64,000 nucleotides of DNA from Anaerolineaceae bacterium (GCA_002702705.1 PABH01000019.1:55192-119191), one strand, 5' to 3'. Shown: positions 34,482-50,942, counted from the first letter of the stretch. Program-made: numbers and translations. The notes: generated by a model not told the origin, from the sequence alone.

Positions 34482-34652
34482 ACCACAAGGAAGTTGGAAA
34501 TCCAATAAAAAAGACCACAAGGGAATTGCGCGTAGCCAATATTGAATATCATTATATCTATATTTTATATATAGTCTTATAATAAATTTGACTTACCCGG
34601 TTTATAATATGTTATACGATCTTCTGTTTTATTGATAAGAATTGGAACAAAA

Positions 34653-35582
34653 ATGCTTACCACTCCTGACCTATTATTAACCAAGGGTTATGTTTTTGAC
34701 ATTCACCGTTTTTCCATTCATGATGGACCTGGCATTCGCACCACAATCTTTTTGAAGGGATGTCCCCTTTCCTGTGTTTGGTGCCATAATCCTGAAAGTC
34801 AATCTACTAAGCCTGAAAAAATTGTCCGCGTTTCACGTTGTATTAAGTGTGGGGCGTGTGTGGAAGTTTGCCCCGTGCATGGTATTTCCATAAATGATAG
34901 TAGGGTGGTCACTGATTTGAGTCGTTGTACGGTATGCGGAACATGTGTCGAGGTTTGTGCAACTGAAGCGAGTGAGATTGTTGGGGAAGAGACGAGCGCA
35001 GCTGATCTAGCCCAACTTATACAAAGGGATCGTATATTTTATGATGAAAGTGGGGGTGGAGTGACATTCTCGGGAGGGGAACCGTTAGTTCAAGTCAAGT
35101 TTTTACAAACTGTAATGGCATCTGTTCATACAATGGGTATCCAGACTGCGTTAGACACCTGCGGTTATGCCCATTGGGAGGCATTTCTGAAAGTATTACC
35201 CTTTACTGATCTGATATTATTTGACATCAAGGTGCTTGACGATCAAAAACACAAACAATTCACAGGGGTTTCTAATCAATTAATTTTGGATAACCTGCAA
35301 AAACTGAACCAGCAAGGAAAAAAAATCTGGTTACGATTTCCAGTTATTCCTGGGATTAATGATGATGTAGATAATCTAACCGAGATCGTTGATTTGGCAA
35401 AAATGTATTCACATATAGAGCGTTTAAGTTTACTTCCCTATCACAAAGCTGCAGTAAAAAAGTATGAAGGATTGGGTTTGAATTATTGTTTGGATGATAT
35501 TGAGTCGCCCAGTGAAACCAGGATGGATGAATTGGCAGGGTGGTTTCAGCAATCAGGTTTGCCGGCTGTGGTGGGAGGATAA
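34653..35582 (+). CDS. Glycyl-radical enzyme activating protein (radical SAM plus two ferredoxin-like clusters)
   Basis: DIHRFSIHDGPGIRT, radical SAM motif CPLSCVWCHNPE, auxiliary clusters CIKCGACVEVCP and CTVCGTCVEVCA. The start could be 34632 or 34653. Confidence 0.9.
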   Translation: MLTTPDLLLTKGYVFDIHRFSIHDGPGIRTTIFLKGCPLSCVWCHNPESQSTKPEKIVRVSRCIKCGACVEVCPVHGISINDSRVVTDLSRCTVCGTCVEVCATEASEIVGEETSAADLAQLIQRDRIFYDESGGGVTFSGGEPLVQVKFLQTVMASVHTMGIQTALDTCGYAHWEAFLKVLPFTDLILFDIKVLDDQKHKQFTGVSNQLILDNLQKLNQQGKKIWLRFPVIPGINDDVDNLTEIVDLAKMYSHIERLSLLPYHKAAVKKYEGLGLNYCLDDIESPSETRMDELAGWFQQSGLPAVVGG

Positions 35583-35584
35583 AA

Positions 35585-37945
35585 TTGAATGAACGTGTAA
35601 AAAAATTAAGGGAATACAGCTTGACCATTCCAGCGACTTTATCTTCCGAAAGGGCCGTATTAATGACCCAGTTTTATCAACAGTTAAATCAACTTGTTTC
35701 TAAACCTGTGGAAAGAGCCCTATCTTTTGCTTTTTTAATGGAACACAAATCGATTTATATCCATCCCGGAGAATTGATTGTTGGTGAAAAAGGAGATCTC
35801 CCCAAAGCAGCACCAACTTTTCCGGAGTTATGCTGCCATTCGCTTAATGATCTGGAAATTTTAGATAGCCGAGAAAAGATTCCTTTTAAAGTTTCTTCCG
35901 ATACCTTAACTTTATTTCAGAATGAAATTATCCCGTTTTGGACTGGCAAAACCATGCGGGAACGTATTTTTACTGAAATGAGCGATGATTGGAAAGCAGC
36001 TTATGAAGCGGGAATATTTACCGAATTTATGGAGCAGCGTGCACCCGGGCATACTGTATTGGATGATAAGATCTATCATTTCGGTATGTTTGATTTTGTG
36101 GAAAAAATTGATCACCGTCTGCAAACATTGGATTACCTGAAAAATCCACGCGCATATGATCAGCAAGAAGAATTAAAAGCCATGCGGATTACTGCCCTGG
36201 CCATCATTCGTTTTGCGGAACGCCATGCTGAGGAAGCCCAACGCCTGGCCCTGATTGAAAAAGACCCGCAACGTAAAAAAGAACTGGAAAAGATAAATAA
36301 AATTTGCCGCCGAGTACCTGGCAATAAACCTGAAACTATGCATGAAGCCTTGCAGTATTATTGGTTTGTGCATTTAGGTGTTACCACAGAGCTAAATACT
36401 TGGGATGCTTTTGACCCGGGGAGACTCGACCAACATCTCTACCCCTTTTATGAAAAAGAAATTAAAACTGGTCAAATTACTCACGAACAAGCAGAAGAGT
36501 TATTACAGTGTTTCTGGATCAAGTTTAATAACCAGCCGGCGCCGCCCAAGGTAGGTGTCACGGCAGCAGAAAGTGGTACCTATACTGATTTTGCCCAGAT
36601 TAATTTGGGTGGTGTGCAGGCGGATGGTTCTGATGGTGTCAACGAGATCACATACCTGCTGCTCGATGTGGTTGAAGAGATGCGGCTTTTGCAACCGAGT
36701 GCATCCATTCAGGTCAGCAAAAAAAATCCAGATCAATTTATTACACGAGCTGCCCAAATTATCAGGACTGGCTTTGGGCAGCCATCCATATTTAATGCGG
36801 ATGCTATTATTCAGGAATTACAGCGTATGGGTAAATCCCTGCTGGATGCCAGAAACAGCGGCTCCAGCGGTTGTGTGGAGGTGGGAGCCTTTGGTAAGGA
36901 AAATTATAATCTAACCGGTTATTTTAATATTCCAAAGATTTTAGAATTAACCCTGCATAATGGTTTAGATCCTCGGACCGGAAAACAACTGGGTCCTCGT
37001 ACAGGCGATCCATTGAATTTTGCTAATTTTGAAAATTTATTCGAAGCCTTTTCCGAACAAATGCGTTATTTTATTGATATCAAGGTGCGTGGTAATCAAA
37101 TCATTGAACGTTTATATGCGCGTTATATGCCATGTCCGTTTTTATCTTTGTTGATTGATGACTGTATTGAAAAAGCAATGGATTACCACGAAGGGGGCGC
37201 GCGTTACAACACCACTTATATTCAAGGGGTGGGAATTGGCTCCATCACAGATCAACTTTCCGCAATTAAGACTCATGTGTTTGAAAAAAATTCGCTGACG
37301 ATGAAACAATTATTGAATGCTTTAGCAAATAATTTTGAAGGTCATGAACGTACCCGTCAGCTTCTGTTAAATCGAACTCCCCGTTATGGTAATGACGATG
37401 AGGCTGCTGATGAATTGATGCAGCAGGTATTTGAGTTATTTTTTGATTCGATTGATGGAAGGCCAAATACAAAAGGTGGTACCTATCATATTAATCTCTT
37501 GCCCACAACATGTCATGTTTATTTTGGCTCCGTGATGAATGCATCCCCGGAAGGTCGTTTGGCAGGAACACCTTTATCTGAGGGGATTTCTCCAGTGCAA
37601 GGTGCTGATCGAAAGGGTCCGACAGCTGTTTTACGGTCTGCCGCCAAGTTGGATCATTTGCGAACAGGGGGGACCTTGTTAAATCAGAAATTCTCGCCAA
37701 ATCTGATGAAGGGGGAAGCTGGCCTTATGCTGCTGACACAATTGGTGCGAGCTTATTTTAAAATGGACGGTCACCATATCCAATTTAACGTAGTAGATGC
37801 GGAAACTTTAAAACAAGCACAGAAAAACCCGCAAGATTACCGAGATTTAATAGTGCGGGTGGCGGGATACAGTGATTATTTTTGTGACCTCAGCCCAGCT
37901 TTACAAAACGAGATTATTCAGCGCACGGAGCACGAATCTTTTTAA
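35585..37945 (+). CDS. Glycyl radical enzyme, PFL2 / glycerol dehydratase / hydroxyproline dehydratase-like family
   Basis: Probable TTG start 3 nt after the activase stop. Cys loop GSSGCVEVG (Cys codon 36872-36874, Glu two residues later). Glycyl radical motif RVAGYSDYF (Gly codon 37865-37867), 25 aa from the C-terminus. About 786 aa. Confidence 0.9.
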   Translation: MNERVKKLREYSLTIPATLSSERAVLMTQFYQQLNQLVSKPVERALSFAFLMEHKSIYIHPGELIVGEKGDLPKAAPTFPELCCHSLNDLEILDSREKIPFKVSSDTLTLFQNEIIPFWTGKTMRERIFTEMSDDWKAAYEAGIFTEFMEQRAPGHTVLDDKIYHFGMFDFVEKIDHRLQTLDYLKNPRAYDQQEELKAMRITALAIIRFAERHAEEAQRLALIEKDPQRKKELEKINKICRRVPGNKPETMHEALQYYWFVHLGVTTELNTWDAFDPGRLDQHLYPFYEKEIKTGQITHEQAEELLQCFWIKFNNQPAPPKVGVTAAESGTYTDFAQINLGGVQADGSDGVNEITYLLLDVVEEMRLLQPSASIQVSKKNPDQFITRAAQIIRTGFGQPSIFNADAIIQELQRMGKSLLDARNSGSSGCVEVGAFGKENYNLTGYFNIPKILELTLHNGLDPRTGKQLGPRTGDPLNFANFENLFEAFSEQMRYFIDIKVRGNQIIERLYARYMPCPFLSLLIDDCIEKAMDYHEGGARYNTTYIQGVGIGSITDQLSAIKTHVFEKNSLTMKQLLNALANNFEGHERTRQLLLNRTPRYGNDDEAADELMQQVFELFFDSIDGRPNTKGGTYHINLLPTTCHVYFGSVMNASPEGRLAGTPLSEGISPVQGADRKGPTAVLRSAAKLDHLRTGGTLLNQKFSPNLMKGEAGLMLLTQLVRAYFKMDGHHIQFNVVDAETLKQAQKNPQDYRDLIVRVAGYSDYFCDLSPALQNEIIQRTEHESF

Positions 37946-37952
37946 CTTGCGC

Positions 37953-38711
37953 CTATTGGTTTTTTGCCCAGGTAACAGGATCATGCGAGGTGAGAATTTC
38001 TATCTCATCCCCGTGTTTTTCTAGCAGCGCTGCAATTTTTGGCTGGTAATTTCCCAAAATTAACTGGACTAATTTTTGCGGTGGGCTGACATATTGTTCA
38101 CTTTCGTTTAGATAAAATGGGTAACAAGCATCTCCACAGTTTAACAACCAGCCAGAATCGGTTTGGATAACCACCATACAGTGTCCTAAAGTGTGCCCAG
38201 GAGTGGGAATCAACATAATTTCAGGTGTAAAACCATTTAATCGGATGGCTGGGAAACCGAACCAAGTTGTATCTGTTTGTTCGTATAACTGCCAATTTGG
38301 TTTATGTGCCCAATGGTAGGGAAGGCAGCCAAGACCTAATAAACCACGACGTTTTATAGCTGCATCCAATTCTCTACGGTTTAGGTGAACTTGTGCTTTT
38401 GGAAAATCCGCCAGTCCGCCAGCATGATCCAGGTGCAGATGGGTTAACACAATATGGTTTATATCTTCTGTTTTCAGGCCGAATTTTCCAATTTGATTAA
38501 CAATACAAAGTGATGGATCGTTTGGAATGCGTAGTAACTTTAAGAACCATTTCATAAAAAAGGAAGGGTGTGAAAAATCTTGGGTACCAAAACCGCTATC
38601 TACCAAAAGCCATCCCTGGTTGGTTTCTACCAGCAACACATAGGTAACCCCGGTGATTTTTGGCCAGTATGGACGCATTGGTCCGCTGTCAAGATGGTAA
38701 ATTTTTGTCAT
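37953..38711 (-). CDS. MBL-fold metallo-hydrolase (paralog 1)
   Basis: THLHLDHAGG motif plus downstream PTPGHTLGH and CGDA. 252 aa. Confidence 0.85.
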   Translation of the reverse strand: MTKIYHLDSGPMRPYWPKITGVTYVLLVETNQGWLLVDSGFGTQDFSHPSFFMKWFLKLLRIPNDPSLCIVNQIGKFGLKTEDINHIVLTHLHLDHAGGLADFPKAQVHLNRRELDAAIKRRGLLGLGCLPYHWAHKPNWQLYEQTDTTWFGFPAIRLNGFTPEIMLIPTPGHTLGHCMVVIQTDSGWLLNCGDACYPFYLNESEQYVSPPQKLVQLILGNYQPKIAALLEKHGDEIEILTSHDPVTWAKNQ

Positions 38712-38746
38712 AAGATTTCCCTTTTACGAATTAATATTCGTTGGTG

Positions 38747-39505
38747 TTATTGGTGATTCTTCCAAAGATTAAAATCATGACCGGTGACCATATCAATCTG
38801 ATTACCGTATTCACTAAATAATTGTTTTAAACGTGAACGGTTCTGACCCCAGAACAGCTTTTCCAGCCATTTGGGTAAAGAATATATTTCGTTGGATTTA
38901 TCAAAGTTAAAAGGAAAAACAGCGGAGCCGGTTTGCAGAAGCCACCCTGTTTCAGTTTGCACTGCCACCATGCAGTGACCCGTTGTGTGGCCAGGCAGGG
39001 GGATGAGGTGGATTGGAGGTTGGAAATCACGTAAAGCGATGGATGGGAAACCATACCATTCCTCATCCGGTTGGGCATAAAATTTCCAATTCTGGTGATT
39101 TTTCCACTGGTGTTGTTGGTATCCCAGACCCAACAGTCCTTCCCTTTTATTGGCAGAAACCCATTCTCGTTTATAAACATGAGCTGTGACCCAGGGAAAA
39201 TCAGATAACCCGCCAATGTGATCGAGATGCAAGTGTGTAAAGATAATGTGAGACACATCATTGGGATCGATGCCCAAAGCTTGCACCTGATTAATAATGC
39301 TTTGTACAGGTTCGCGTTTGATGGACATTAGACTCATAAAAATCCTGGTGACAAGATCAGGGTGAAGAAAGTCTTTAGTGCCAAAACCACTGTCAATTAA
39401 TACCCAACCCTGGTTGGTTTCCACCAGCAAGACATGGGTCACGCCTTTAAGGACAGAAAGGGGTGGTGAAAAGGTGCCGCTGTTGAGGTGATAAATCGTT
39501 GACAT
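38747..39505 (-). CDS. MBL-fold metallo-hydrolase (paralog 2)
   Basis: THLHLDHIGG and PLPGHTTGH. It has the same length (252 aa) as its neighbour and aligns end to end with it (M.TIYHL.SG...LLVETNQGW.L.DSGFGT.DF). Confidence 0.85.
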   Translation of the reverse strand: MSTIYHLNSGTFSPPLSVLKGVTHVLLVETNQGWVLIDSGFGTKDFLHPDLVTRIFMSLMSIKREPVQSIINQVQALGIDPNDVSHIIFTHLHLDHIGGLSDFPWVTAHVYKREWVSANKREGLLGLGYQQHQWKNHQNWKFYAQPDEEWYGFPSIALRDFQPPIHLIPLPGHTTGHCMVAVQTETGWLLQTGSAVFPFNFDKSNEIYSLPKWLEKLFWGQNRSRLKQLFSEYGNQIDMVTGHDFNLWKNHQ

Positions 39506-39849: not shown

Positions 39850-42800
39850 ATGCGTTTCTCCGCAGGTCGCCGTATTTTTAATGTTATTGTTTTATTAATG
39901 TTTATTTTAAGTTTGTTTAGTTTTCCCACAGCGCCTGTTTCCGCAGAGCCGGTAGAGAGACCGCTGGCTCTTGATACTCCTCCAATGATTTCTTTACTAA
40001 CCCCGGGATCCGTTTTGATTGGTGAAGACTTAGATTTCACGGTTACCTTTAATAACAATGGAGATTCACCAGGTTATGGACCGTATATTGATGTTTTTAT
40101 TGACCGAACCGGGGTTGATGGGATCTATCCTGGAACTGGATTAACAGACCCAACAGATCTATTCGATGGGTTAGCCGCTGGCGGTGTCAATGACTTTTCT
40201 GTTGAGTACAATGGGGTTTCTATCAATTCCAATGATTTATTTTTTATTGAATTTCTCCCAGGTACTGGATCTGATTCGGGGCGAGTTGTTGCGACCCATC
40301 CGCTTTTAAGAGACCTTGCGGGTAATTATGTAACTGTTTATGGTGATGATTACGGTTATGAAGCAGGCGATGTTTTGGTCGTTGTGAGACTACCTTTTGG
40401 TAGTTTTGTTCCTGATCAACCAGCAATTGATATTGATATTTCCACATCCATGAGTAATTGGGCTGATCTTGGAACACCATTAAGCATTTCTGCACGTGGT
40501 GGGTATCAGTTCGGATCAACTGCAACCGATGATTGGTGCTGTGATAATCAGTTGGATCTGGTTAGTTTTCCTGTAACAGGAAATGTTATTCCGACTCTCG
40601 TTACTTTCGCAAAAACAAATTTTGCGTCTGAGGCTGAAACTGCAACCGGTCCTAATTTTGAACAGGATTATGAAATTTCCATCACGGTGGCAGACGGACA
40701 AACGATTACAGATTTTAATTTGGTCGATGAGCTAGATGATAATGTTTATTATGTTGGCCCATTAAGTTTTACCGGATCATCCCCCTCCTGTACACCTCCT
40801 GCTACTAGTCCAGGAGGAACCATCAACTGTACTTATTTGTCTTTGAGCGGAACTTCGACGATCAGTTTTCCTTTTTACATACCACGAATAAACAGTGGTC
40901 TTTCTGATGTACTCAATCCAAGCACTGGTGACGATTCATCATCTTGTAACCAGGCTGGTGGTCTGGGAACCTGGGTGTCGATTGATCCACGGGATATCGC
41001 AGAAGATGATAATGTACGTGTGAACTTAAACATCGGAGATGATGGTCTTGAGTCGACTTGTGAAGATACTTTAGCAGACAAATCAATTACAATTCAAAAA
41101 TCCAATACGATCGCTGTTAATGCAGGCGCAGCCGGTGCAAGTCCAAGTGATATTGTGCGCTATACACTTAATTTCCAAATATCCGATTATTTTGCTTTTG
41201 AGGATATCGTCGTAACAGATGTTTTGAGTGATGGACAGCATTTTTATCCTGGAAATCCTCCCACTTTATCCATTAACGGCAATAGTTTTGATTTAACTGC
41301 TTCAGCCATTGCTCCAGAGAATGTAGATATAGTATGTAAATACACAGGTGCTTTAGACGATGATACCAATTGTACCGAACTAGATCTAGATTCAAGTGGG
41401 GAAACCAGGCTCGTGTTTAATGTATCCAGTGAAATTATCTCAAAAGGGCAGCTAACCGGAAATATGGTGGGTGGCTGTGTAGAACCAACTGGCACGGGTG
41501 TTTTTCCTCCGAATTGTAATACGAGTGATTCGGATGGATATAATGATGGGGCTACTACCGGTACCATCACATATTACGCTTCCATTTTAGAAAATTTCAC
41601 AGACGTCTATCCTTCAGGTGATCCTTCAGTCGATCAAGGAGATACGCTTTCAAATACTGTGTTAGTGACAGGGCAGTTGCTGGATGTTTCTGATTTATCT
41701 TCGACTGCAAATAGCGAACTAGATAATAGTGCTTCCGAGTTATCTATTGCTCGTGGTTCTCTAACAAAATCAATATATGCGATAAATGGAGAAACACCAG
41801 AAGAGCCAGCAAAAATTACTGTGGGTGATGAAGTAACCTACCGGATTCAATACCAATTACAAACCAATGATATAGAAAATCTGGTTTTTACCGATTATTT
41901 TCCACTCCCTATTTTTAATGTAGGAGCAACTTGGGCTTTCGATGATACGAAAAATACTGGTGTCACAGATGTTCCTGCTCCTGGAACAGTAAAATTAGGA
42001 AGTGCTGATACTTTTTATGAATTGTATCGTACTGATCCTGACTTAGACCCTATCACAGGCTTTGGTATCACATCTGATATAGCAGCAAATTCAGTACGTG
42101 TGAGCTTTGGAGATTTTGATTCAAGTTCTGATCTCAATCCAAAAAATATTGATTTATTATTTACCGTTGAAGTGATTGATGCCCAATTTGCTGATGGTTT
42201 ATATTTTACAAACCAAGCACAGGTTGAAGAAAGTTCCACAGGGTTAAGCCCTGAATCTGCCAGTTCAATTGTCCAGATTCAATTTACATCTCCAATTCTT
42301 ACAACTTCAAAATCTGTTGTAGCAACCGATGGAAATGGAACCGTTACAACTGATGTAATGGGAGTTATCTGGTCAGCCCCGACTACAGCTGGTGTTTATC
42401 CTGGCGCTCGTTGGGCAGGAGACATTGCTGACATTGACTCCGTTTCAAATAATATTATAAATGCTGATGCAGGTGATTTGGTGACCTTCGCAATCGTCAT
42501 TCAAAATACAGGGAGTGGTATTAGTGGTGCCTTCGATATTGATATTTTAGATTCATTGGACTTAACCTATTTTGAGTATCCTGAACCTGGGGATATTCAT
42601 TTGCAAATTTATTATGGGGATGGATCAGGACCAATTGCATATGTGGGTTCGATTGACGATTTTATTGATGATACGAGTGATGCATTAGACGCTGCCAGTG
42701 GCATCCGTTTAGTGGACCCGACTCCCACTGAAGGTGTTTGTCAGGCTCATGACCCCAATAGTTTAAACGACACCATTGTGATCACCTATGATTTAAGGTT

Positions 42801-45800
42801 AAAATCCACAGTGGAAGCTGGTGAAATTTATACAAATAGCGGCACAATAATTCATTATGCTGGCCAGGAAGGTGGAACGAATTTAGTTCCTGACCCCAAT
42901 CCAACGGATGATTCTACGGTTACCATCAGTCAGCCTGAAATTTCCAAATCTTTTATCAGCACAGGTATCATCACACCTGGGACGAATAATGATAATACCC
43001 ATGCTGTTATTGGTGAGATTGTTACATATCAACTGGTAGTGACCGTTCCGGAAGGAACCACACCCAATGCTCAGATTATTGATACGATGAGCGCTGGTTT
43101 AGCCTTTGTTGATATTAACAGTGTGGTATCCGATACAAATGTGGAGTCTGCTAATCTAATTGGCACGGGGGTTACTCCAGCAAATGTAACAGTTAGCAGT
43201 ACGAATGGGGGCACTGGCAACCGACTGACGTTTAATTTTGGAACGATTACCAACAATAATACAAACAATGGCACAGATAACACAATTACCATTGAGTACG
43301 ACACTGTGGTGTTAAATGACATTAATAATCAAACCAACACTACTCTGGGGAATATTGCATACTTTACCTGGGGCAGTGACGGCAGTATCAATGACAGCAG
43401 TGACCAAATTACTGTGATTGAACCCGATTTATCGATTACCAAGATGGCACAACGATTGTTGCCCACAGCTGGTGGAGCATCCGTTGATGCGGATGATACG
43501 GTTGAATATACAATTTCTATTTCAAATAGTTCTGGTGTGGATGCTTTTGATGTAACGATTAGTGACACTTTTCCGAGTTATTTAGATCCCGCAACACTCT
43601 TGATTACTGGTGTGAATGATAGTGGATCAATCCTCGATACGGATGATTTTGACATAACCGGTAATGTTCTTTCCACATTAACTAATTTTGATATGTTAAT
43701 TGCAAATTCTCGAACAGTGTCGTTAACCATTACTGGTGTTGTTATTGACACAATTACACCTACTCGAACAATTACCAATACGGCTCGGGTTTCCTGGAGT
43801 AGTTTGGATGGTGATATTACTGACAGATCAACCTATAACACCAACTCCGATGAACGAACTGGTGCAGATGGACCCGGAACCGGATTAAACAATTATGCTA
43901 AAAACAGTTTAGCTGCTAATGTTTCCGTGCCTGCTTTATCCGGTGCAAAACTGTTTGTTACCTCTTCAGAAGCGGGAACTTCAAATACGTCTAATCCACC
44001 TCGTTTAACGATTGGTGAAATTGTTCGATATCGATTGTACGCTTTAGTTCCAGAGGGATTATCTACAGATCTATCTTTGTTTGACAGACTGCCCAATGGC
44101 TTGCAATTTATCAATGATGGTCAGGTAAAAGCAGCATTTGTCTCCACAGGAACTGCAAGTAATACATTTACATCGTCGACAATCGATGTAAGTACAAACC
44201 CGACAATAGAAATTACAGGAAGTGCAATTGATTTAATTTCATTACCATCGGGAAGTATTGTCTTTACATTACCGGATTCAGCAATCTCTAGATTGCCAGA
44301 TAGTAATGATGATACATATGGAAATGGGACAGATATTTATTTCAAATTTGGTAATATTTCCAATCTTGATGATGACGCAGACAATGAGTATATTGTTGTT
44401 GAATTTAATGCACTCGTGTTAAATGTAAATGGAAATCAAGGTTATAACAATAGTAACGGAGCCAGTATTGATACCAACCTGGATAATAATTTCCAAGGAA
44501 TCCGGAATACAAGCGGTACCCAGATCATTGATTTTACCTCATCCAATATGCGAACTCGGATTGCCGAACCCGCGATTACAAACCTTTCGAAGTCTGTTTC
44601 CCCATCTGGTGGGGATGCCGGCAATACCGTTTCTTATGCGGTTACTTTCTCAAATGCGAGTGGGGTGAATGCCTCACCTGCCTACAATGTGGAATTTACA
44701 GACACAGTACCAGCGAAGATGGAAAATGTATCACTTCCACCTACTGTGACGAGTGCCTGTGCAATTGGTGCAGATCCATCTGCTTCATCTGGGAATGCTA
44801 TTAATGTCAGTTTTACCGAACTCCCGGTAGGATGTGCTGTTACGATTGCCTACACAGCACAATTAACAACGGCCGTCATCCCGAATGAAATCTTAACCAA
44901 TAGTGCCAAAGTCACGTACACTAGTTTACCGGGCAGTAATGGAACTCCCTCAAACCCAACAGGGAGTGCCAATACAGGAACCCCGGGAGATGCTGATGGT
45001 GAACGTATTGATGGTTCTACTTTAAATGATTATGAAGATACCGACAGCGTTGATGTGACCGTAACCCCAATCCAACCAGTTAAATCATTGGTTAGTTCTA
45101 CCGATCTAAATACCATTGATCCTAACTTGACGATTGGTGAAACAGCTCGCTTCCGGATGGAAATATTAATTGGAGAAGGTTCTTCCCCAATTTTTATTGT
45201 CACTGATAACTTGCCAAGTGGCTTTGAATATACTGGGAACGCTACAATGGCATTTGTCGCATCTGGAAATACGATCACTTCCGACAATGCCGATATTGGT
45301 AATTCGCCTTGGGTTATTGGGGATGAAACAACCATAGATAGTATTACACCAACTTTTGATGTGCCCGCAAGTGCAATCAATGCAGGTCCTTTTACGAATG
45401 GAATGGATCCTGTATTCAACTTTAGCAATCTAACGAATGCGGAAACCGACACTGATGATGAATTTATTGTGGTTGAATTTGATGCAGTTGTTCTGAATGT
45501 TAGTGGAAATCAGGCTGTCGGTCCTCAAACCCAACTTGACAATACGTTCACGGTTTCAATTGACAGCGTAAATCGTGGTACATCAAATACAATTTCAACG
45601 TATGTTGTAGAACCACAGATTACAACTACAAAAGATGTTTCACTCAGTAGCGGTATGGCTTATGAAGCCGGTTCCGTGGTTGAATATAGTTTATCTTATG
45701 AAAATACCGGTTCATCCACAGCTTACGATGTGACCGTGGTAGATGATTTACCACCGTTTTTAACGTATGATGATGCCAGCATTTCTTGTACGATCAATGG

Positions 45801-48800
45801 GGGATCAGTTGACACGACAATTACACCGACATTGATGGATGCGACAGATCCTGCTCATGATTATTATCAGTTAGCGATCAATAGTCAAACAGAAGGCGAT
45901 TGGGGTATCCCGGTTGGGCAATCACTGGATTGTACCTTTACCGCCACAATCCAAACTTCGGTTTACACGGACGCTACTTACACCAATACCACTGATGCCG
46001 ATTGGAGTTCGTTTGACGGAACGGATAACACTGAAGACCGCAATTATGATGGCGGTAGCAACGGTTACGATACAGGTACCGATTACAATATTGATGTAGA
46101 CCAAGATACGGATAACGCTGAATTTGATATCCTTACCCCAACTATCGTAAAAACGGTTAATAAAACGGATGCGACCATTGGTGAAGTAGTTCGATATACC
46201 ATCACAATGACAAGTCCTTTAGGTACACTTTATGACTGGGTTGTTACCGATTCTCTACCGGCCGGTTTGATTTTTGCCGGGAATATTATAGAAACTGGAT
46301 TTGACTTCCCGGATCCTACAATTTCTTCCCCCAATGATGGTACAACCGCGGTGACACTTGAATGGGATATGAGTGGTGCGGAAGTTACATCAAACACAAT
46401 GTCCATTGCATTTGACGTGATCGTTGCAAACAGCGTGGATGGGAGTTCTGCTTACATCAATGTCAATGGCGATGATCCAAACAATAATGTGGAAATGGCT
46501 TATACAGATATTTCTGGTTCCACTCAAACGATTTCGGATGATGAAAGCTTTAATGTTATCGAACCTGAACTTCAGGTGGATAAAAACTTTACACCAAACC
46601 CAGTTGGATTAGGCCAAACTGCAACCTACACCATTAATCTTTCTCACACCGCCGCCAGTTCCACAAACGCGATGGATATTACCATCACGGATGTGATTCC
46701 GAGTGGTTTGACGTATGAAGTTGCGACTATTGGCGGAAGTTGTACCAGTGGTACTTTAACCCCAAGTGATGCAGGGTCACCAACCTTAACCTGGACGGTA
46801 GATAACCTACCCGTTGGAGAAACCTGTACATTAACCTATCAGGTCACCGTGGATGATAATTCTCTGGGTGAGATTTTAACCAACAGCGTTACGGGTGGTT
46901 ATTCCACCATTTCCGGCACCCCAACCCCGGATGAAGAACGGGATTACACCCTCAGTACCGATGTGGATCTGGAAATCACAGGTCCTGATCTGTCGATCAC
47001 AAAAGATGATGGTGTGATCGAAACAATACCAGGTTCTACCCTGACCTATACGCTTTCTTATGAAAATCATGGTAATGGGCCAGCAACCGGTGTTGTTATT
47101 ACGGAAACGGTTCCCAATAATGCAACCTTTACCACCACAGGCAGCACAGCAGGCTGGAGCTGCAGCGACGGGGCAGGCGCGGGGACGACTTGTACCTTAC
47201 CGATTGGAAACCTTGCCGCAGGTGCTACCGGTTCCGCAACGTTTGTGGTGATTGTTGATTCGAGTGTACCTGCAGATGTCACTCAAATCGTTAACGATGT
47301 ATCCATTGCGGGTAATGAAACCGAACCCACCCCGGATGACAACCCAAATTCTGATTCAGACACGGATACCTTAACCGCCGCAGTAGATTTGACCCTAACC
47401 AAGATTGATGATGTCGCCGATGGCGATTCTGTCAATCCGGGTGATACGATTATCTACACTTTAACCTACGACAATATTGGTAATCGTGATGCTACCGGTG
47501 TTGAGATTGTTGATGATGTTCCGGCAAATACAACTTTTACCACCACGGGCAGCACAGCAGGCTGGAGTTGTTCCCCGGACAGTAGCGCTGGTTCAACCTG
47601 TACCTTTGTGATCGGTGATGTTGATGTGAATGATCCTGCCGGCACGGTATACTTTGCTGTTGTGGTTGATGACCCATTAGCCAGTGGTGTGACTGAGATT
47701 TTGAACGCGGCTACTATTGGTGGTAATGAAACAGAATTGGTTACAACCAATAACACGGATGATGAAACTACCCCTGTTATTGCCGAGCCAAACTTAACCA
47801 TCACCAAAGTAGCCGATGGAACCCAAATCGTAACAGGTGGCACGATTGTGTATACCATCACTTATGATAACAATGGAGATCAAACCGCAACAGGTGTGGT
47901 CATTACCGAAACGGTTCCAGCAAATACGACCTTTACGACCACAGGCAGTGATCCACGTTGGAGTTGCAGCGATGGTGATGTGGCTGGGACGGAGTGCACA
48001 GTCACAATCGGTACACTTTCCGTTGGCGGAGGTCTGAGTGACCCGATTGCTTTTGCTGTTGTTGTGAATGACACTGTTCCTGCTGGGGTCGAAAATATTT
48101 ACAATTTGGTAGAAATTACTGACGACGGATTAAATAGTGAAGACGGTTTACCAAAAACAGATAATGATGACGAAGAGACACTATTACTTGCCGCTCCCGA
48201 TTTGAATATCGTCAAGGACGATGGTGTTGAAATCATACAAGCTGGACAGAACCTGACCTATACCATTACCTATAATAATGTAGGTGATCAAGATGCGACC
48301 GGTGTGGTAATCACGGATACAGTGCCCCTCTTTACAACCTATAATTCAGAAGCAACCCCCGGTTGGGTTTGTGTTCCAGATGAAACTGCAGGCTCATTGT
48401 GTACCTACACCATTGGCGATTTAGCCGCTGGCGCTACAGGTCAGGTAAGTTTTGCAGTCGATGTTGATGATCCAATTGACGCCTCCATTGATGAAATTTA
48501 CAATTTTGTAACTATCAATGATGATGGCGAAAACGGTGATGACCTGACCGAAGATAACCAGGATGATGAAATTACTCCAGTGGATGCCCTGCCGGACCTT
48601 ACGATCATCAAGAACGACCGCGATGTAACTGCTGTTCCAGGTGATTCGATTCAGTATGGCCTGGCGTATGAAAATGTCGGTCAGCAGAATGCAACGGGTG
48701 TGGTTATTACGGAAACGGTTCCGGGTTACACAACTTATGACGCGGTGAATAGTAACCCAGCTTGGGTTTGTGATGATATCACCGCTGGTTCAACGTGTAC

Positions 48801-50853
48801 ATTTGCGGTGGGTGATTTGAATGCCGGTGATTCAGGTAGTGTTTTGTTTGCTGTCCTGGTTGAAAACCCACTGACAGCTGGTGTTGAATCGATCCTGAAC
48901 AATGTTTCGATTGAAGATGATGGTACAAATGGTGAGGATCCAACGCCGGAAAATAATGTTGATGATGAAGAAACACCGGTGGATGCAATATCCGACTTGA
49001 CCATCACTAAAGATGATGGTGTGGTACAGGTTACCCCAGGAGAAGAATTAACTTATACGATCGTCGTTGCAAATGTAGGCACCCAATCCGCGACGGGGGT
49101 AGTGGTGACGGATACTTTGCCGATTGGTGTAGTGTTTGTTTCTGCCAGTGATGGTGGCGTGTATGATGACAACACTCGAGAGATTATTTGGAATTTGGGA
49201 GAATTAGCTGGAGGTGGTGAAATCACGCTGACCGTTGAAATTTCCGTGGAGGATCCGTTCACTGGTGTCAATCCGGAAATTGTGAATGAAGTTATCGTAG
49301 AAGACGACGGCAGCAACGGTGTTGATCCAACCCCGGAAAATAATGAAGACAGTGATCGTGATTTGATTGGTGACAGCGCGAAGGTTATCAGTGGTACCAA
49401 CCAAATACACACGACTGGTTTGGATGTGGCAGTAGGTGAGGTTGTAACTTATACAGTTACTTTGGATATTGCCCCTGGTTTGGTTGAAGATTTAGTATTT
49501 ACGGATATTCTGGATCAAGGTATGGCCTTCGTTGGTTGTAATCAGATTACTACCGATCCTGCTGATGTATTAACCTTAGAACCTGGTTATACCTTATCCG
49601 GTTTGTGTACAATGGCAGCCATTTCGCAGTATCCTGTAACCAGCACTAATGTAACAGACAGTGGCCGCCAGATGATAATCAACTTTGGCGATGTGACCAA
49701 CATCTCCGCTGCGGAGGAGGATATCACATTAACCATTGAATACGATGTGGTGGTACTAAATACAGAAGCCAATGTGGATGGCCAGACCTTGGGTAACCAG
49801 GCTGACTGGACTTGGGTAGGTGGTTCGTTAGAAGCTGAAGCCAGCCCTGTTACGATTGTGGAACCAGATTTGGTAATCACAAAATCTGTAACACCTGAAA
49901 CAGCATACAACAATCAGACGGTGACCTTCACGGTAACTTTAAATCACACCGAAGATAGTAATTCAGATGCGTTTAATCTGGCAATATCGGATACTCTTCC
50001 AGAAACATTAACCTATGTTCCGGGCAGTCTGGTGTTTGTCAGTGGACAGGTGCCGACTTTGATCAATGATTTGAATGCACCGATTTTACGGGTAGGTTGG
50101 GATATTTTTACACAAACAACCGAACCGACTGTGTTGAGCTATCAGGCACGAATTACCAAAGCCAATCCAGGTTCAAAAATTGAAAACACCGTCACCATGG
50201 AATGGACAAGTTTACCTGGTGATGTGCTTACACCGCAATCACCATACAACCAAACATCGGTTGAACGATCCTATACTCCGGGTTCGAATGTGGATGTATA
50301 TGGAGTCTCAGCGAATGCGCTTATCAATATCCCGCAACTCCCGGATACAGGTTTTGCACCTGGTGTCCGCACCATTTTGCCTCAACAACCGGAGAACCTG
50401 GTTTACCAAGCAATCGATGATCTGCGATTTGCCATTCCGAAACAAAACCTTGATCTGCCTATAGTTGGTGTGCCGTTGGCAACTGATGGATGGGATCTAA
50501 CTTGGTTAAGTTCACAGGTGGGATACTTGGAAGGTACTGCTTACCCGACTTGGGATGGAAACACTGGGTTAACCGCCCATGTTTACAATGCAGATGGTAC
50601 ACCCGGACCATTTGTGAACTTGCATCTCCTGCGTTGGGGTGATAAGGTAGAAGTGACCGCATTTGGACAGGTGTTCACCTATGAAGTTCGCAGTGTTGAA
50701 CGAGTAAGTCCGAATGATCTCTCGGTACTGCATCATGAAGATCGCTCCTGGTTGACATTGATAACTTGCCAGAGCTTCGATGAAACCAAGGGTAGTTACA
50801 CCTGGCGTGTGGTTGTACGGGCTGTGTTGGTTTCGGTAGAACCAATAAATTGA
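39850..50853 (+). CDS. Giant secreted surface protein (3667 aa): signal peptide, pilin-like and DUF11-type Ig-fold modules, LPDTG motif, C-terminal sortase domain
   Basis: GGGAGG RBS. Signal peptide MRFSAGRRIFNVIVLLMFILSLFSFPTAPVSA. A single uninterrupted ORF of 11 kb with Thr/Asp/Asn/Gly-rich beta-type composition. Details are in the sub-features. Confidence 0.9.
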   Translation: MRFSAGRRIFNVIVLLMFILSLFSFPTAPVSAEPVERPLALDTPPMISLLTPGSVLIGEDLDFTVTFNNNGDSPGYGPYIDVFIDRTGVDGIYPGTGLTDPTDLFDGLAAGGVNDFSVEYNGVSINSNDLFFIEFLPGTGSDSGRVVATHPLLRDLAGNYVTVYGDDYGYEAGDVLVVVRLPFGSFVPDQPAIDIDISTSMSNWADLGTPLSISARGGYQFGSTATDDWCCDNQLDLVSFPVTGNVIPTLVTFAKTNFASEAETATGPNFEQDYEISITVADGQTITDFNLVDELDDNVYYVGPLSFTGSSPSCTPPATSPGGTINCTYLSLSGTSTISFPFYIPRINSGLSDVLNPSTGDDSSSCNQAGGLGTWVSIDPRDIAEDDNVRVNLNIGDDGLESTCEDTLADKSITIQKSNTIAVNAGAAGASPSDIVRYTLNFQISDYFAFEDIVVTDVLSDGQHFYPGNPPTLSINGNSFDLTASAIAPENVDIVCKYTGALDDDTNCTELDLDSSGETRLVFNVSSEIISKGQLTGNMVGGCVEPTGTGVFPPNCNTSDSDGYNDGATTGTITYYASILENFTDVYPSGDPSVDQGDTLSNTVLVTGQLLDVSDLSSTANSELDNSASELSIARGSLTKSIYAINGETPEEPAKITVGDEVTYRIQYQLQTNDIENLVFTDYFPLPIFNVGATWAFDDTKNTGVTDVPAPGTVKLGSADTFYELYRTDPDLDPITGFGITSDIAANSVRVSFGDFDSSSDLNPKNIDLLFTVEVIDAQFADGLYFTNQAQVEESSTGLSPESASSIVQIQFTSPILTTSKSVVATDGNGTVTTDVMGVIWSAPTTAGVYPGARWAGDIADIDSVSNNIINADAGDLVTFAIVIQNTGSGISGAFDIDILDSLDLTYFEYPEPGDIHLQIYYGDGSGPIAYVGSIDDFIDDTSDALDAASGIRLVDPTPTEGVCQAHDPNSLNDTIVITYDLRLKSTVEAGEIYTNSGTIIHYAGQEGGTNLVPDPNPTDDSTVTISQPEISKSFISTGIITPGTNNDNTHAVIGEIVTYQLVVTVPEGTTPNAQIIDTMSAGLAFVDINSVVSDTNVESANLIGTGVTPANVTVSSTNGGTGNRLTFNFGTITNNNTNNGTDNTITIEYDTVVLNDINNQTNTTLGNIAYFTWGSDGSINDSSDQITVIEPDLSITKMAQRLLPTAGGASVDADDTVEYTISISNSSGVDAFDVTISDTFPSYLDPATLLITGVNDSGSILDTDDFDITGNVLSTLTNFDMLIANSRTVSLTITGVVIDTITPTRTITNTARVSWSSLDGDITDRSTYNTNSDERTGADGPGTGLNNYAKNSLAANVSVPALSGAKLFVTSSEAGTSNTSNPPRLTIGEIVRYRLYALVPEGLSTDLSLFDRLPNGLQFINDGQVKAAFVSTGTASNTFTSSTIDVSTNPTIEITGSAIDLISLPSGSIVFTLPDSAISRLPDSNDDTYGNGTDIYFKFGNISNLDDDADNEYIVVEFNALVLNVNGNQGYNNSNGASIDTNLDNNFQGIRNTSGTQIIDFTSSNMRTRIAEPAITNLSKSVSPSGGDAGNTVSYAVTFSNASGVNASPAYNVEFTDTVPAKMENVSLPPTVTSACAIGADPSASSGNAINVSFTELPVGCAVTIAYTAQLTTAVIPNEILTNSAKVTYTSLPGSNGTPSNPTGSANTGTPGDADGERIDGSTLNDYEDTDSVDVTVTPIQPVKSLVSSTDLNTIDPNLTIGETARFRMEILIGEGSSPIFIVTDNLPSGFEYTGNATMAFVASGNTITSDNADIGNSPWVIGDETTIDSITPTFDVPASAINAGPFTNGMDPVFNFSNLTNAETDTDDEFIVVEFDAVVLNVSGNQAVGPQTQLDNTFTVSIDSVNRGTSNTISTYVVEPQITTTKDVSLSSGMAYEAGSVVEYSLSYENTGSSTAYDVTVVDDLPPFLTYDDASISCTINGGSVDTTITPTLMDATDPAHDYYQLAINSQTEGDWGIPVGQSLDCTFTATIQTSVYTDATYTNTTDADWSSFDGTDNTEDRNYDGGSNGYDTGTDYNIDVDQDTDNAEFDILTPTIVKTVNKTDATIGEVVRYTITMTSPLGTLYDWVVTDSLPAGLIFAGNIIETGFDFPDPTISSPNDGTTAVTLEWDMSGAEVTSNTMSIAFDVIVANSVDGSSAYINVNGDDPNNNVEMAYTDISGSTQTISDDESFNVIEPELQVDKNFTPNPVGLGQTATYTINLSHTAASSTNAMDITITDVIPSGLTYEVATIGGSCTSGTLTPSDAGSPTLTWTVDNLPVGETCTLTYQVTVDDNSLGEILTNSVTGGYSTISGTPTPDEERDYTLSTDVDLEITGPDLSITKDDGVIETIPGSTLTYTLSYENHGNGPATGVVITETVPNNATFTTTGSTAGWSCSDGAGAGTTCTLPIGNLAAGATGSATFVVIVDSSVPADVTQIVNDVSIAGNETEPTPDDNPNSDSDTDTLTAAVDLTLTKIDDVADGDSVNPGDTIIYTLTYDNIGNRDATGVEIVDDVPANTTFTTTGSTAGWSCSPDSSAGSTCTFVIGDVDVNDPAGTVYFAVVVDDPLASGVTEILNAATIGGNETELVTTNNTDDETTPVIAEPNLTITKVADGTQIVTGGTIVYTITYDNNGDQTATGVVITETVPANTTFTTTGSDPRWSCSDGDVAGTECTVTIGTLSVGGGLSDPIAFAVVVNDTVPAGVENIYNLVEITDDGLNSEDGLPKTDNDDEETLLLAAPDLNIVKDDGVEIIQAGQNLTYTITYNNVGDQDATGVVITDTVPLFTTYNSEATPGWVCVPDETAGSLCTYTIGDLAAGATGQVSFAVDVDDPIDASIDEIYNFVTINDDGENGDDLTEDNQDDEITPVDALPDLTIIKNDRDVTAVPGDSIQYGLAYENVGQQNATGVVITETVPGYTTYDAVNSNPAWVCDDITAGSTCTFAVGDLNAGDSGSVLFAVLVENPLTAGVESILNNVSIEDDGTNGEDPTPENNVDDEETPVDAISDLTITKDDGVVQVTPGEELTYTIVVANVGTQSATGVVVTDTLPIGVVFVSASDGGVYDDNTREIIWNLGELAGGGEITLTVEISVEDPFTGVNPEIVNEVIVEDDGSNGVDPTPENNEDSDRDLIGDSAKVISGTNQIHTTGLDVAVGEVVTYTVTLDIAPGLVEDLVFTDILDQGMAFVGCNQITTDPADVLTLEPGYTLSGLCTMAAISQYPVTSTNVTDSGRQMIINFGDVTNISAAEEDITLTIEYDVVVLNTEANVDGQTLGNQADWTWVGGSLEAEASPVTIVEPDLVITKSVTPETAYNNQTVTFTVTLNHTEDSNSDAFNLAISDTLPETLTYVPGSLVFVSGQVPTLINDLNAPILRVGWDIFTQTTEPTVLSYQARITKANPGSKIENTVTMEWTSLPGDVLTPQSPYNQTSVERSYTPGSNVDVYGVSANALINIPQLPDTGFAPGVRTILPQQPENLVYQAIDDLRFAIPKQNLDLPIVGVPLATDGWDLTWLSSQVGYLEGTAYPTWDGNTGLTAHVYNADGTPGPFVNLHLLRWGDKVEVTAFGQVFTYEVRSVERVSPNDLSVLHHEDRSWLTLITCQSFDETKGSYTWRVVVRAVLVSVEPIN
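46981..49380 (+). repeat. Six tandem ~133-aa (~400-nt) DUF11-type repeats inside the giant gene
   Basis: Units start near 46984, 47377, 47783, 48191, 48586 and 48985, each opening with (P)DL(S/T/N)I(T/V/I)K. The core is LTYT(L/I).Y.N.G...ATGVVIT(E/D)TVP..T(F/Y). Five units carry a W.C...(A)G(S/T).C Cys pair. Nucleotide identity is locally high, for example 32 nt with one mismatch at 47128-47159 versus 47536-47567. Confidence 0.8.
50338..50352 (+). other. LPDTG sortase-recognition-type motif (aa 3497-3501)
   Basis: The context is INIPQLPDTGFAPGVRTILPQQPENLVY. No hydrophobic helix or basic tail follows. Confidence 0.7.
50416..50850 (+). other. Sortase (C60 transpeptidase)-like catalytic domain fused in frame to the giant protein
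   Basis: LRFAIPKQNLDLPIVGV; GNTGLTAHV (His 3577, nt 50578-50580); RSWLTLITC (Cys 3640, nt 50767-50769); WRVVVRAV (Arg 3657, nt 50818-50820). The order and spacing match the sortase His-Cys-Arg triad. Confidence 0.75.
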
Positions 50854-50904: not shown

Positions 50905-50942
50905 CGAAAAGTGAAAAGGAAAACTTTTCACTTTTCGTTTTT
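50905..50942 (+). terminator. Rho-independent terminator after the giant gene
   Basis: Perfect 14-bp stem CGAAAAGTGAAAAG / CTTTTCACTTTTCG (50905-50918, 50924-50937), 5-nt loop, then TTTTT. Confidence 0.85.

Follow-up and report, generated by a model that had tools for sequence, protein, structure and literature searches.

A sorting motif and a sortase domain fused at the C-terminus of a family of giant surface proteins in Anaerolineae

Introduction

Sortases are membrane-anchored enzymes that act on separate substrates with multiple turnover, and those of class C carry a lid with a DPW, DPF or DPY motif. Here we analysed a gene in which a sorting motif and a sortase domain are encoded as one polypeptide. 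It lies in a 64,000-nucleotide stretch of DNA from an Anaerolineaceae bacterium (GCA_002702705.1, PABH01000019.1:55192-119191; hereafter the window, from whose first letter all positions are counted) and encodes a giant adhesin of 3667 residues. Two precedents are relevant to such an arrangement. In S. coelicolor SrtE1, a tripeptide located 22 residues ahead of the structured domain, in the N-terminal linker of the enzyme itself, sits in the active site much as a substrate would (PMC5148588). Furthermore, an engineered autocyclase with the order protein-LPGTG-linker-SrtA undergoes a unimolecular reaction when its linker has 7-19 residues, to which about 14 disordered residues of SrtA add (PMC9985607). 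Both show that such a geometry is workable.

The adhesin also belongs to a described class of surface proteins, since most of its length consists of repeats of the DUF11 type, a domain now named CLIPPER and characterised in PMC12617251. The survey in that study annotated sorting motifs solely within the last 50 residues, and would thus have overlooked a family whose motif lies about 170 residues from the end. In the full-text literature, from which subscription journals are largely absent, we found only engineered substrate-sortase fusions and no description of a natural one; the bare domain combination may be listed in some architecture catalogue.

Results

The adhesin gene (39850..50853, + strand) starts with ATG, and its product is deposited at NCBI as MAT41871.1, a 'hypothetical protein' of an Anaerolineaceae metagenome-assembled genome (MAG). 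The original prediction placed an LPDTG motif at residues 3497-3501 of this 3667-residue open reading frame (ORF), and the sequence bears this out (50338..50352, + strand; predicted scissile bond between Thr3500 and Gly3501). The 166 residues that follow are non-hydrophobic and make up a linker (residues 3502-3519, 50353..50406, + strand; FAPGVRTILPQQPENLVY, family consensus FAPG.vT.LP.QP....Y) and a sortase catalytic domain (residues 3520-3667, 50407..50850, + strand), which forms the C-terminal end of the protein. Of the parts of a canonical LPXTG anchor, the adhesin has the signal peptide and the LPXTG motif but lacks a hydrophobic helix and charged tail within about 35 residues of the C-terminus. 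Neither helix nor basic tail is found after LPDTG, and Pfam gave no Gram_pos_anchor match. The highest 19-residue hydropathy mean over residues 3490-3667 is 0.86; that is, the helix is absent as had been claimed, and the sortase has no membrane anchor of its own.

The domain at the C-terminal end is a genuine sortase, again as predicted. Residues 3528-3661 match the Pfam family PF04203 (Sortase) with 79-84 bits against a cutoff of 26.6 (E 2.7e-22 to 9e-24), and the NCBIfam model sortase_fam (TIGR01076) scores 54.5 bits against a cutoff of 39.35. The sortase triad of His, Cys (in TLxTC) and Arg (at Cys + 13) is present in the correct order as His3577 (LTAHV, 50578..50580), Cys3640 (TLITC, 50767..50769) and Arg3653 (TWRVVV, 50806..50808), all on the + strand and each invariant in 121/121 homologues. 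The stop codon follows 27 residues past Cys3640, which is the only Cys beyond residue 3253. While the order of the triad, the His and the Cys had been assigned correctly, the Arg had been sought in VVVRA, four residues off. This residue, Arg3657, is Arg in just 96/121 homologues, and we assign the catalytic role to Arg3653 because of its invariance and its Cys + 13 spacing, which is that of other sortases. In the wider family the Cys was located by motif search in 343/347 members, the other four having variants (SLITC, SLLTC) or a truncated ORF, and Arg3653 is conserved in 342 of the 343.

None of the class-specific NCBIfam models came near its cutoff (score/cutoff: C 45.8/160, F 43.9/166, E 41.7/160, D 41.3/165, GN 30.3/158), and no class A or B model was among the matches at E <= 0.01. 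The domain therefore represents an unclassified sortase clade. In a Foldseek comparison the predicted structure matched over 50 sortase structures, among them members of classes C, D, E and A, at a probability of 1.00, with target-normalised TM-scores up to 0.82 and a root-mean-square deviation of 2.3-2.8 A over about 145 residues. Thus, by hidden Markov model (HMM) score, catalytic triad and fold the domain belongs to the sortase superfamily, without a membrane anchor and outside the defined classes.

The best matches by sequence, profile and fold were class C and lidded actinobacterial sortases (2xwg, 24rr, 8t28, 5k9a), and a profile search against PDB sequences placed class C pilus sortases closest among solved structures (24rr at E 2e-17, 8t28, 2xwg). 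This kinship is what one would expect if the fused sortase acted in trans, cutting the LPXTG motif of another molecule and linking the Thr of that motif to a further subunit, at a Lys or in the N-terminal region, so that covalent fibres or sheaths would form as in class C pili. Such polymerisation would fit the NCBI name of the Levilinea orthologue ('isopeptide-forming domain-containing fimbrial protein'), a weak GramPos_pilinBB match and an N-terminal head domain with a conserved Lys255 in 62/114 long family members; engineered sortase fusions, too, yield intermolecular products (PMC10804404). We nevertheless regard it as unlikely, though the strongest of the alternatives considered here. No recognisable pilin motif was identified, the N-terminal domains of many family members are unrelated, and an enzyme working catalytically in trans need not be encoded once per substrate.

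The motif and the linker are conserved in a manner that bears on the same question. A homology search with residues 3480-3667 returned 438 matches, of which 120 were examined. Among the 117 homologues covering the site, none lacks the P, T or G of LPxTG (117/117) and L is kept in 106/117, while x varies freely (A40, D21, E14, also K, Q, R, S, N and others). Fixed L, P, T and G around a free x is the pattern of a true sortase substrate. The linker is conserved on a par with the enzyme core (F 115/117, A 112/117, P 111/117, T3508 107/118, P3514 98/118, Y3519 113/120). Two cluster representatives have a variant motif, LPNSG or LPDVG. We then measured the distance from (L/M/I/V/A)PxTG(F/Y) to the catalytic Cys in the 336 of 347 family members that were long enough to judge. 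It is 140-145 residues in 330/336 and exactly 143 in 213. This near-fixed spacing favours action in cis, since a substrate used only in trans would need no fixed linker length. Conversely, polymerisation in trans leaves both the near-invariant length and sequence of the linker and its confident docking in the models described below unexplained.

A lone LPxTG is not significant in itself, because 0.14 occurrences are expected by chance in a protein of this size and composition. For any given 30-residue stretch the expectation is about 1e-3, and the position of LPDTG just upstream of a sortase, at a fixed distance in 330/336 homologues, takes it far beyond chance. The protein contains a second LPxTG, LPGTG at residues 136-140 (40255-40269), within the head domain. 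We rejected it as a functional site, as the insertion that carries it is present in just 6-7/61 aligned homologues, and it is most likely a chance occurrence.

A survey of relatives, which had been suggested for such C-terminal fusions, revealed a large family. An index-free search over 1.84 billion cluster representatives returned at least 1336 proteins at E <= 1e-30 (clusters at 50% identity); in all of the best 150 representatives the match lies at the extreme C-terminus, in proteins of up to 5732 residues. In a genome scan that took a single genome for each species, at least 592 loci came to light; the 80 best, from independent assemblies, were fetched for locus analysis. With one exception these bear the label of Anaerolineae or of other Chloroflexota. 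Among them is the cultured Levilinea saccharolytica KIBI-1, whose orthologue (GAP18020.1 / WP_062418398.1) carries the motif LPKTG. The exception, a 3.8 kb contig (L028, DYJM01000124.1) binned in a MAG labelled Acidithiobacillus ferrivorans, probably reflects binning contamination. The fused arrangement is uninterrupted in 80/80 loci, with the sortase domain terminating a long ORF each time. Four loci (L027, L030, L056 and L068) contain tandem pairs of fused adhesin-sortase genes with one sortase domain per gene; the motif of the second copy in L056 is degenerate (APAAGFAPG). Public databases label family members 'hypothetical protein', 'isopeptide-forming domain-containing fimbrial protein', 'DUF11 domain-containing protein' or 'sortase, partial'.

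These data leave a practically negligible probability that the fusion is an artefact, in which two normal genes, one for an LPXTG substrate and one for a sortase, were joined by a frameshift or assembly error. A mis-joined gene pair had been thought unlikely from this single locus, and its exclusion now follows from the conservation of the arrangement across independent assemblies: the same continuous ORF recurs in 80/80 loci and in the best 150 cluster representatives. There is neither a helix and tail nor a second start between motif and enzyme, and the identical protein is deposited under MAT41871.1 on a 166-kb contig. Moreover, frameshifts in long-read assemblies split fused genes and do not create them. 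One 156-residue 'stand-alone' sortase call (P0040; locus L081, 5800-6120, ENA contig_63132) is such a frameshift-split fused gene. In the DNA upstream of it, ...NLPDTGFAPGQ... can be read in the sortase frame, while the CLIPPER protein runs on in another frame; the frameshift lies just before LPDTG, and the source assembly may be a long-read one. Short sortase entries of the fused family in public databases are fragments or frameshift-split copies.

We next turned to structure prediction. An AlphaFold2 model of residues 3340-3667, computed with the family alignment, had a mean predicted local distance difference test score (pLDDT) of 93 and a predicted template-modelling score (pTM) of 0.85, with values of 95, 95 and 92 for the 10-residue blocks covering LPDTG and the linker. 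When the preceding immunoglobulin-like (Ig-like) domain was omitted (residues 3493-3667), pLDDT was 95.5 and pTM 0.91, and the linker blocks reached 96 and 89. Because high pLDDT is kept without the Ig-like domain, the linker is predicted to pack on the sortase domain. In the short model it forms a short helical turn and otherwise no regular secondary structure, and strand beta-1 begins at residue 3520.

In the profile alignment to 24rr, LPaTGFApg lies just N-terminal to a DPF motif, which we take to be the class C lid. A DPW-type lid motif is absent from the adhesin, and LPxTGFAPG occupies a roughly equivalent position. Both this positional equivalence and the order of the linker in the models could mean that LPXTGFAPG is an autoinhibitory lid that is never cleaved, like DPW or DPF, and that the giant protein is a scaffold displaying a sortase active on other proteins. 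We consider such a pseudo-substrate improbable. To our knowledge, lids are never scissile LPXTG motifs, and a perfect substrate consensus beside an intact Cys-His-Arg site should be cut. A free x between fixed L, P, T and G is, moreover, the signature of a substrate, and neither the window nor 1.3 Mb of flanking sequence yielded candidate substrates in trans.

The last approximately 330 residues are best explained as a self-contained C-terminal sorting cassette consisting of an Ig-like domain, LPxTG-FAPG, an 18-residue docked linker and the sortase domain. Since the same cassette is found on passengers with different N-terminal domains, it appears to be a portable, autonomous sorting module. 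Its first element, the last Ig-like (CLIPPER-type) domain of the protein (residues 3340-3496, 49867..50337, + strand), includes a loop at residues 3456-3485 (50215-50304; WTSLPGD..PQSP.N..S.ER.Y.P....Y). The sequence of this loop is strongly conserved, yet it is the sole low-confidence part of the model (pLDDT blocks 79, 57 and 74). Similar W-S-S-L-x-G...ER loops recur in several stalk domains.

We also looked for components that a conventional sorting system would require. With the family sortase HMM, no other sortase domain was found in the six-frame translation of the window, in keeping with the earlier claim, or in the 80 loci, apart from further fused genes. No ORF with the canonical order of LPXTG, helix and basic tail is present in the window and about 1.3 Mb of flanks, where matches to a loose pattern were ordinary membrane proteins or shadow ORFs. 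The Ig-like domain before LPXTG, used alone as a query for canonically anchored relatives, gave just 3 matches and no information on this point, because the word-index search used for it returned short proteins only. A conserved operon partner, be it an acceptor, an anchor or a separate sortase, was rejected, as the commonest neighbour family occurs in just 14/80 loci. The adhesin gene itself is monocistronic and lies among metabolic genes.

The remainder of the protein has the layout of a fibrillar adhesin. A Shine-Dalgarno-like GGGAGGG lies 7 nt 5' of the ATG. The putative signal peptide (residues 1-32, 39850..39945, + strand; MRFSAGRRIFNVIVLLMFILSLFSFPTAPVSA, followed by EP) has a basic n-region, a hydrophobic core and a cleavage-type site, VSA; it was called by inspection and hydropathy, the cleavage site by inspection only. 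It is the sole hydrophobic segment of the 3667-residue protein (19-residue Kyte-Doolittle mean of 2.28 at residue 12), and most full-length homologues have equivalent N-termini. Next comes the conserved head domain (residues 33-330, 39946..40839, + strand), which has no Pfam match. It is common to 62/114 long family members at 31-48% identity, the N-termini of others being unrelated, and contains the motifs GYGP..D, HP and LPFGSF..QP besides Lys255. This domain could be an adhesive tip or an acceptor domain.

Between the head and the last Ig-like domain extends a stalk (40840..49866, + strand) of CLIPPER/DUF11, DUF7507, DUF7619 and DUF7927 Ig-like repeats identified with Pfam, DUF11 alone scoring 368.7 bits over 12 stretches. 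As a secreted protein with tandem PF01345 or PF24346 repeats, the adhesin qualifies as a CLIPPER/DUF11 adhesin. The stalk contains paired Cys residues (2438/2448, 2574/2584, 2706/2716, 2841/2851, 2974/2983 and 3230/3253; 47161-49611) in motifs such as 'TTGS..GWSCS....TC', and these pairs fit the disulfides reported for CLIPPER domains of Chloroflexota. The whole protein is extremely acidic (518 Asp+Glu versus 100 Lys+Arg). Lys is scarce, with 40 in 3667 residues (1.1%), and from about residue 2385 to 3178 the Lys residues are spaced ~120-135 residues apart. Judged from the sequence, this periodicity may reflect one isopeptide Lys per CLIPPER repeat; as a speculation, the scarcity of free amines could limit self-reaction with a thioester.

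Downstream of the adhesin gene lie a convergent gene for a lipoate-protein ligase and a gene for a phosphoenolpyruvate (PEP)-utilising enzyme, which are neighbours in 3 loci each. The gap between the adhesin and ligase genes contains a hairpin with a T-run (50905..50942; CGAAAAGTGAAAAG-GAAAA-CTTTTCACTTTTCG-TTTTT) that was read from the sequence and is likely a terminator. Directly upstream, and divergent from the adhesin gene, are two tandem paralogous genes for 252-residue proteins of the metallo-beta-lactamase fold (37953-39505, - strand). At 34632-37945 (+ strand) the window carries a glycyl-radical enzyme pair. Its first member is a radical-SAM (S-adenosylmethionine) activating enzyme that has clusters of the ferredoxin type, and its second resembles pyruvate formate-lyase (759 bits for PFL-like, together with a Gly_radical domain). 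Neither Rfam nor a tRNA scan gave a match in the window.

Discussion

We favour the reading that the fused sortase cuts its own LPDTG in cis and hands the adhesin on to an acceptor amine, probably one of the cell wall, whereupon the enzyme is discarded; we hold this proposal to be evenly poised between right and wrong. The protein would be exported by Sec via its N-terminal signal peptide, and the sortase domain would fold outside the cell, where the conserved linker may hold the protein's own LPDTG in or beside the active-site groove. Cys3640, helped by His3577 and Arg3653, would then attack the Thr3500-Gly3501 bond, so that the 3500-residue passenger becomes joined to the enzyme domain by a thioacyl link. 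An amine nucleophile, most likely of a peptidoglycan precursor or cross-bridge at the membrane-wall interface, would resolve the thioester, leaving the adhesin covalently attached and the sortase domain free with the new N-terminus GFAPG.... One enzyme domain would thus serve one substrate molecule in a single turnover. The idea of a single-turnover reaction in cis agrees with the near-fixed spacing, with the docked and conserved linker, with the presence of one enzyme per substrate and with the engineered precedents.

Attachment to the wall is favoured because the C-terminus leaves the Sec channel last, beside membrane and wall, but we hold it weakly, since no tether keeps the enzyme at the membrane and the sortases closest to it polymerise pili. 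Several points weigh against the proposal as a whole. Without a membrane tether, it is unclear by which route the acyl-enzyme would reach lipid II. After cleavage, the amine of the enzyme's own Gly3501 would stay near and favour the reverse reaction. Among solved structures, the nearest relatives are class C pilus-polymerising sortases, whose acceptor is a Lys rather than the wall. Finally, the first 10-residue block of the short model, which comprises the free N-terminus and LPDTG, averages just 84 pLDDT.

The lack of a tether that would bring lipid II near is also what would be expected if water, and not an amine, resolved the thioester. The adhesin would then cut its own LPXTG and be shed or matured with no covalent attachment. 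Acyl intermediates of sortases hydrolyse when a nucleophile is absent, and engineered fusions hydrolyse in vivo (PMC9985607). Even so, self-cleaving release seems a poor bet to us, as a simple protease site would give the same result far more cheaply and an unanchored protein would be lost to the medium, which is a poor fit with a stalk-type adhesin.

If the cis reading is true, it describes a new mode of protein sorting, autocatalytic and stoichiometric, in which each substrate brings its own soluble sortase behind LPXTG. It would also help to explain how giant surface proteins are attached in the filamentous Chloroflexota that are abundant in sludge, sediments and oceans and poorly understood. 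We tentatively, and with slightly less than even confidence, propose that Anaerolineae possess a natural 'autosortase': membrane-free, single-turnover and present once per substrate, it would turn the adhesin C-terminus into a thioester for transfer to the wall, a subunit or an external surface, would be the main and perhaps only sortase system of the class, and would amount to a ready-made self-ligating tag. With about 170-330 residues the cassette is compact, and it is both well conserved and modelled with confidence, which makes it amenable to recombinant work. It could serve protein engineering, because laboratory 'autocyclases' were designed for what the module may do naturally.

Compared with canonical sorting by classes A-F in Bacillota and Actinomycetota, the family shares a substrate with signal peptide and LPXTG, and an enzyme with a beta-barrel, the His-Cys-Arg triad and TLxTC. 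It differs in that a single polypeptide comprises enzyme and substrate, with neither helix nor basic tail on the substrate and no membrane anchor on the enzyme. As in class C and the lidded actinobacterial SrtA, a segment on the N-terminal side, about 20 residues ahead of beta-1, would cover the enzyme; here, however, the lid motif is replaced by a bona fide LPxTG, and the enzyme is fused C-terminally to its presumed substrate with no transmembrane segment.

With CLIPPER/DUF11 fibrillar adhesins (PMC12617251) the protein has in common the signal peptide, the long tandem CLIPPER/CLIPPER_2 stalk and the paired cysteines. The Hedgehog C-terminal (Hint) domain and inteins are analogous in function only: there, too, a passenger thioester is handed over to a nucleophile in a single turnover and the C-terminal domain is discarded. 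There is no homology, and in the adhesin the reaction would be a transthioesterification to a Cys 140 residues downstream instead of an N-to-S shift, with an amine instead of cholesterol as acceptor. The engineered autocyclase has the same order of passenger, LPXTG, linker and sortase, with 18 residues from Gly3501 to beta-1 in the adhesin. However, the autocyclase and the self-cleaving fusions (PMC9985607; PMC2901362) are laboratory constructs derived from S. aureus SrtA, in which the linkers are flexible and a Gly nucleophile is added, whereas the present family is natural, ancient and widely conserved, and its linker is rigid and conserved.

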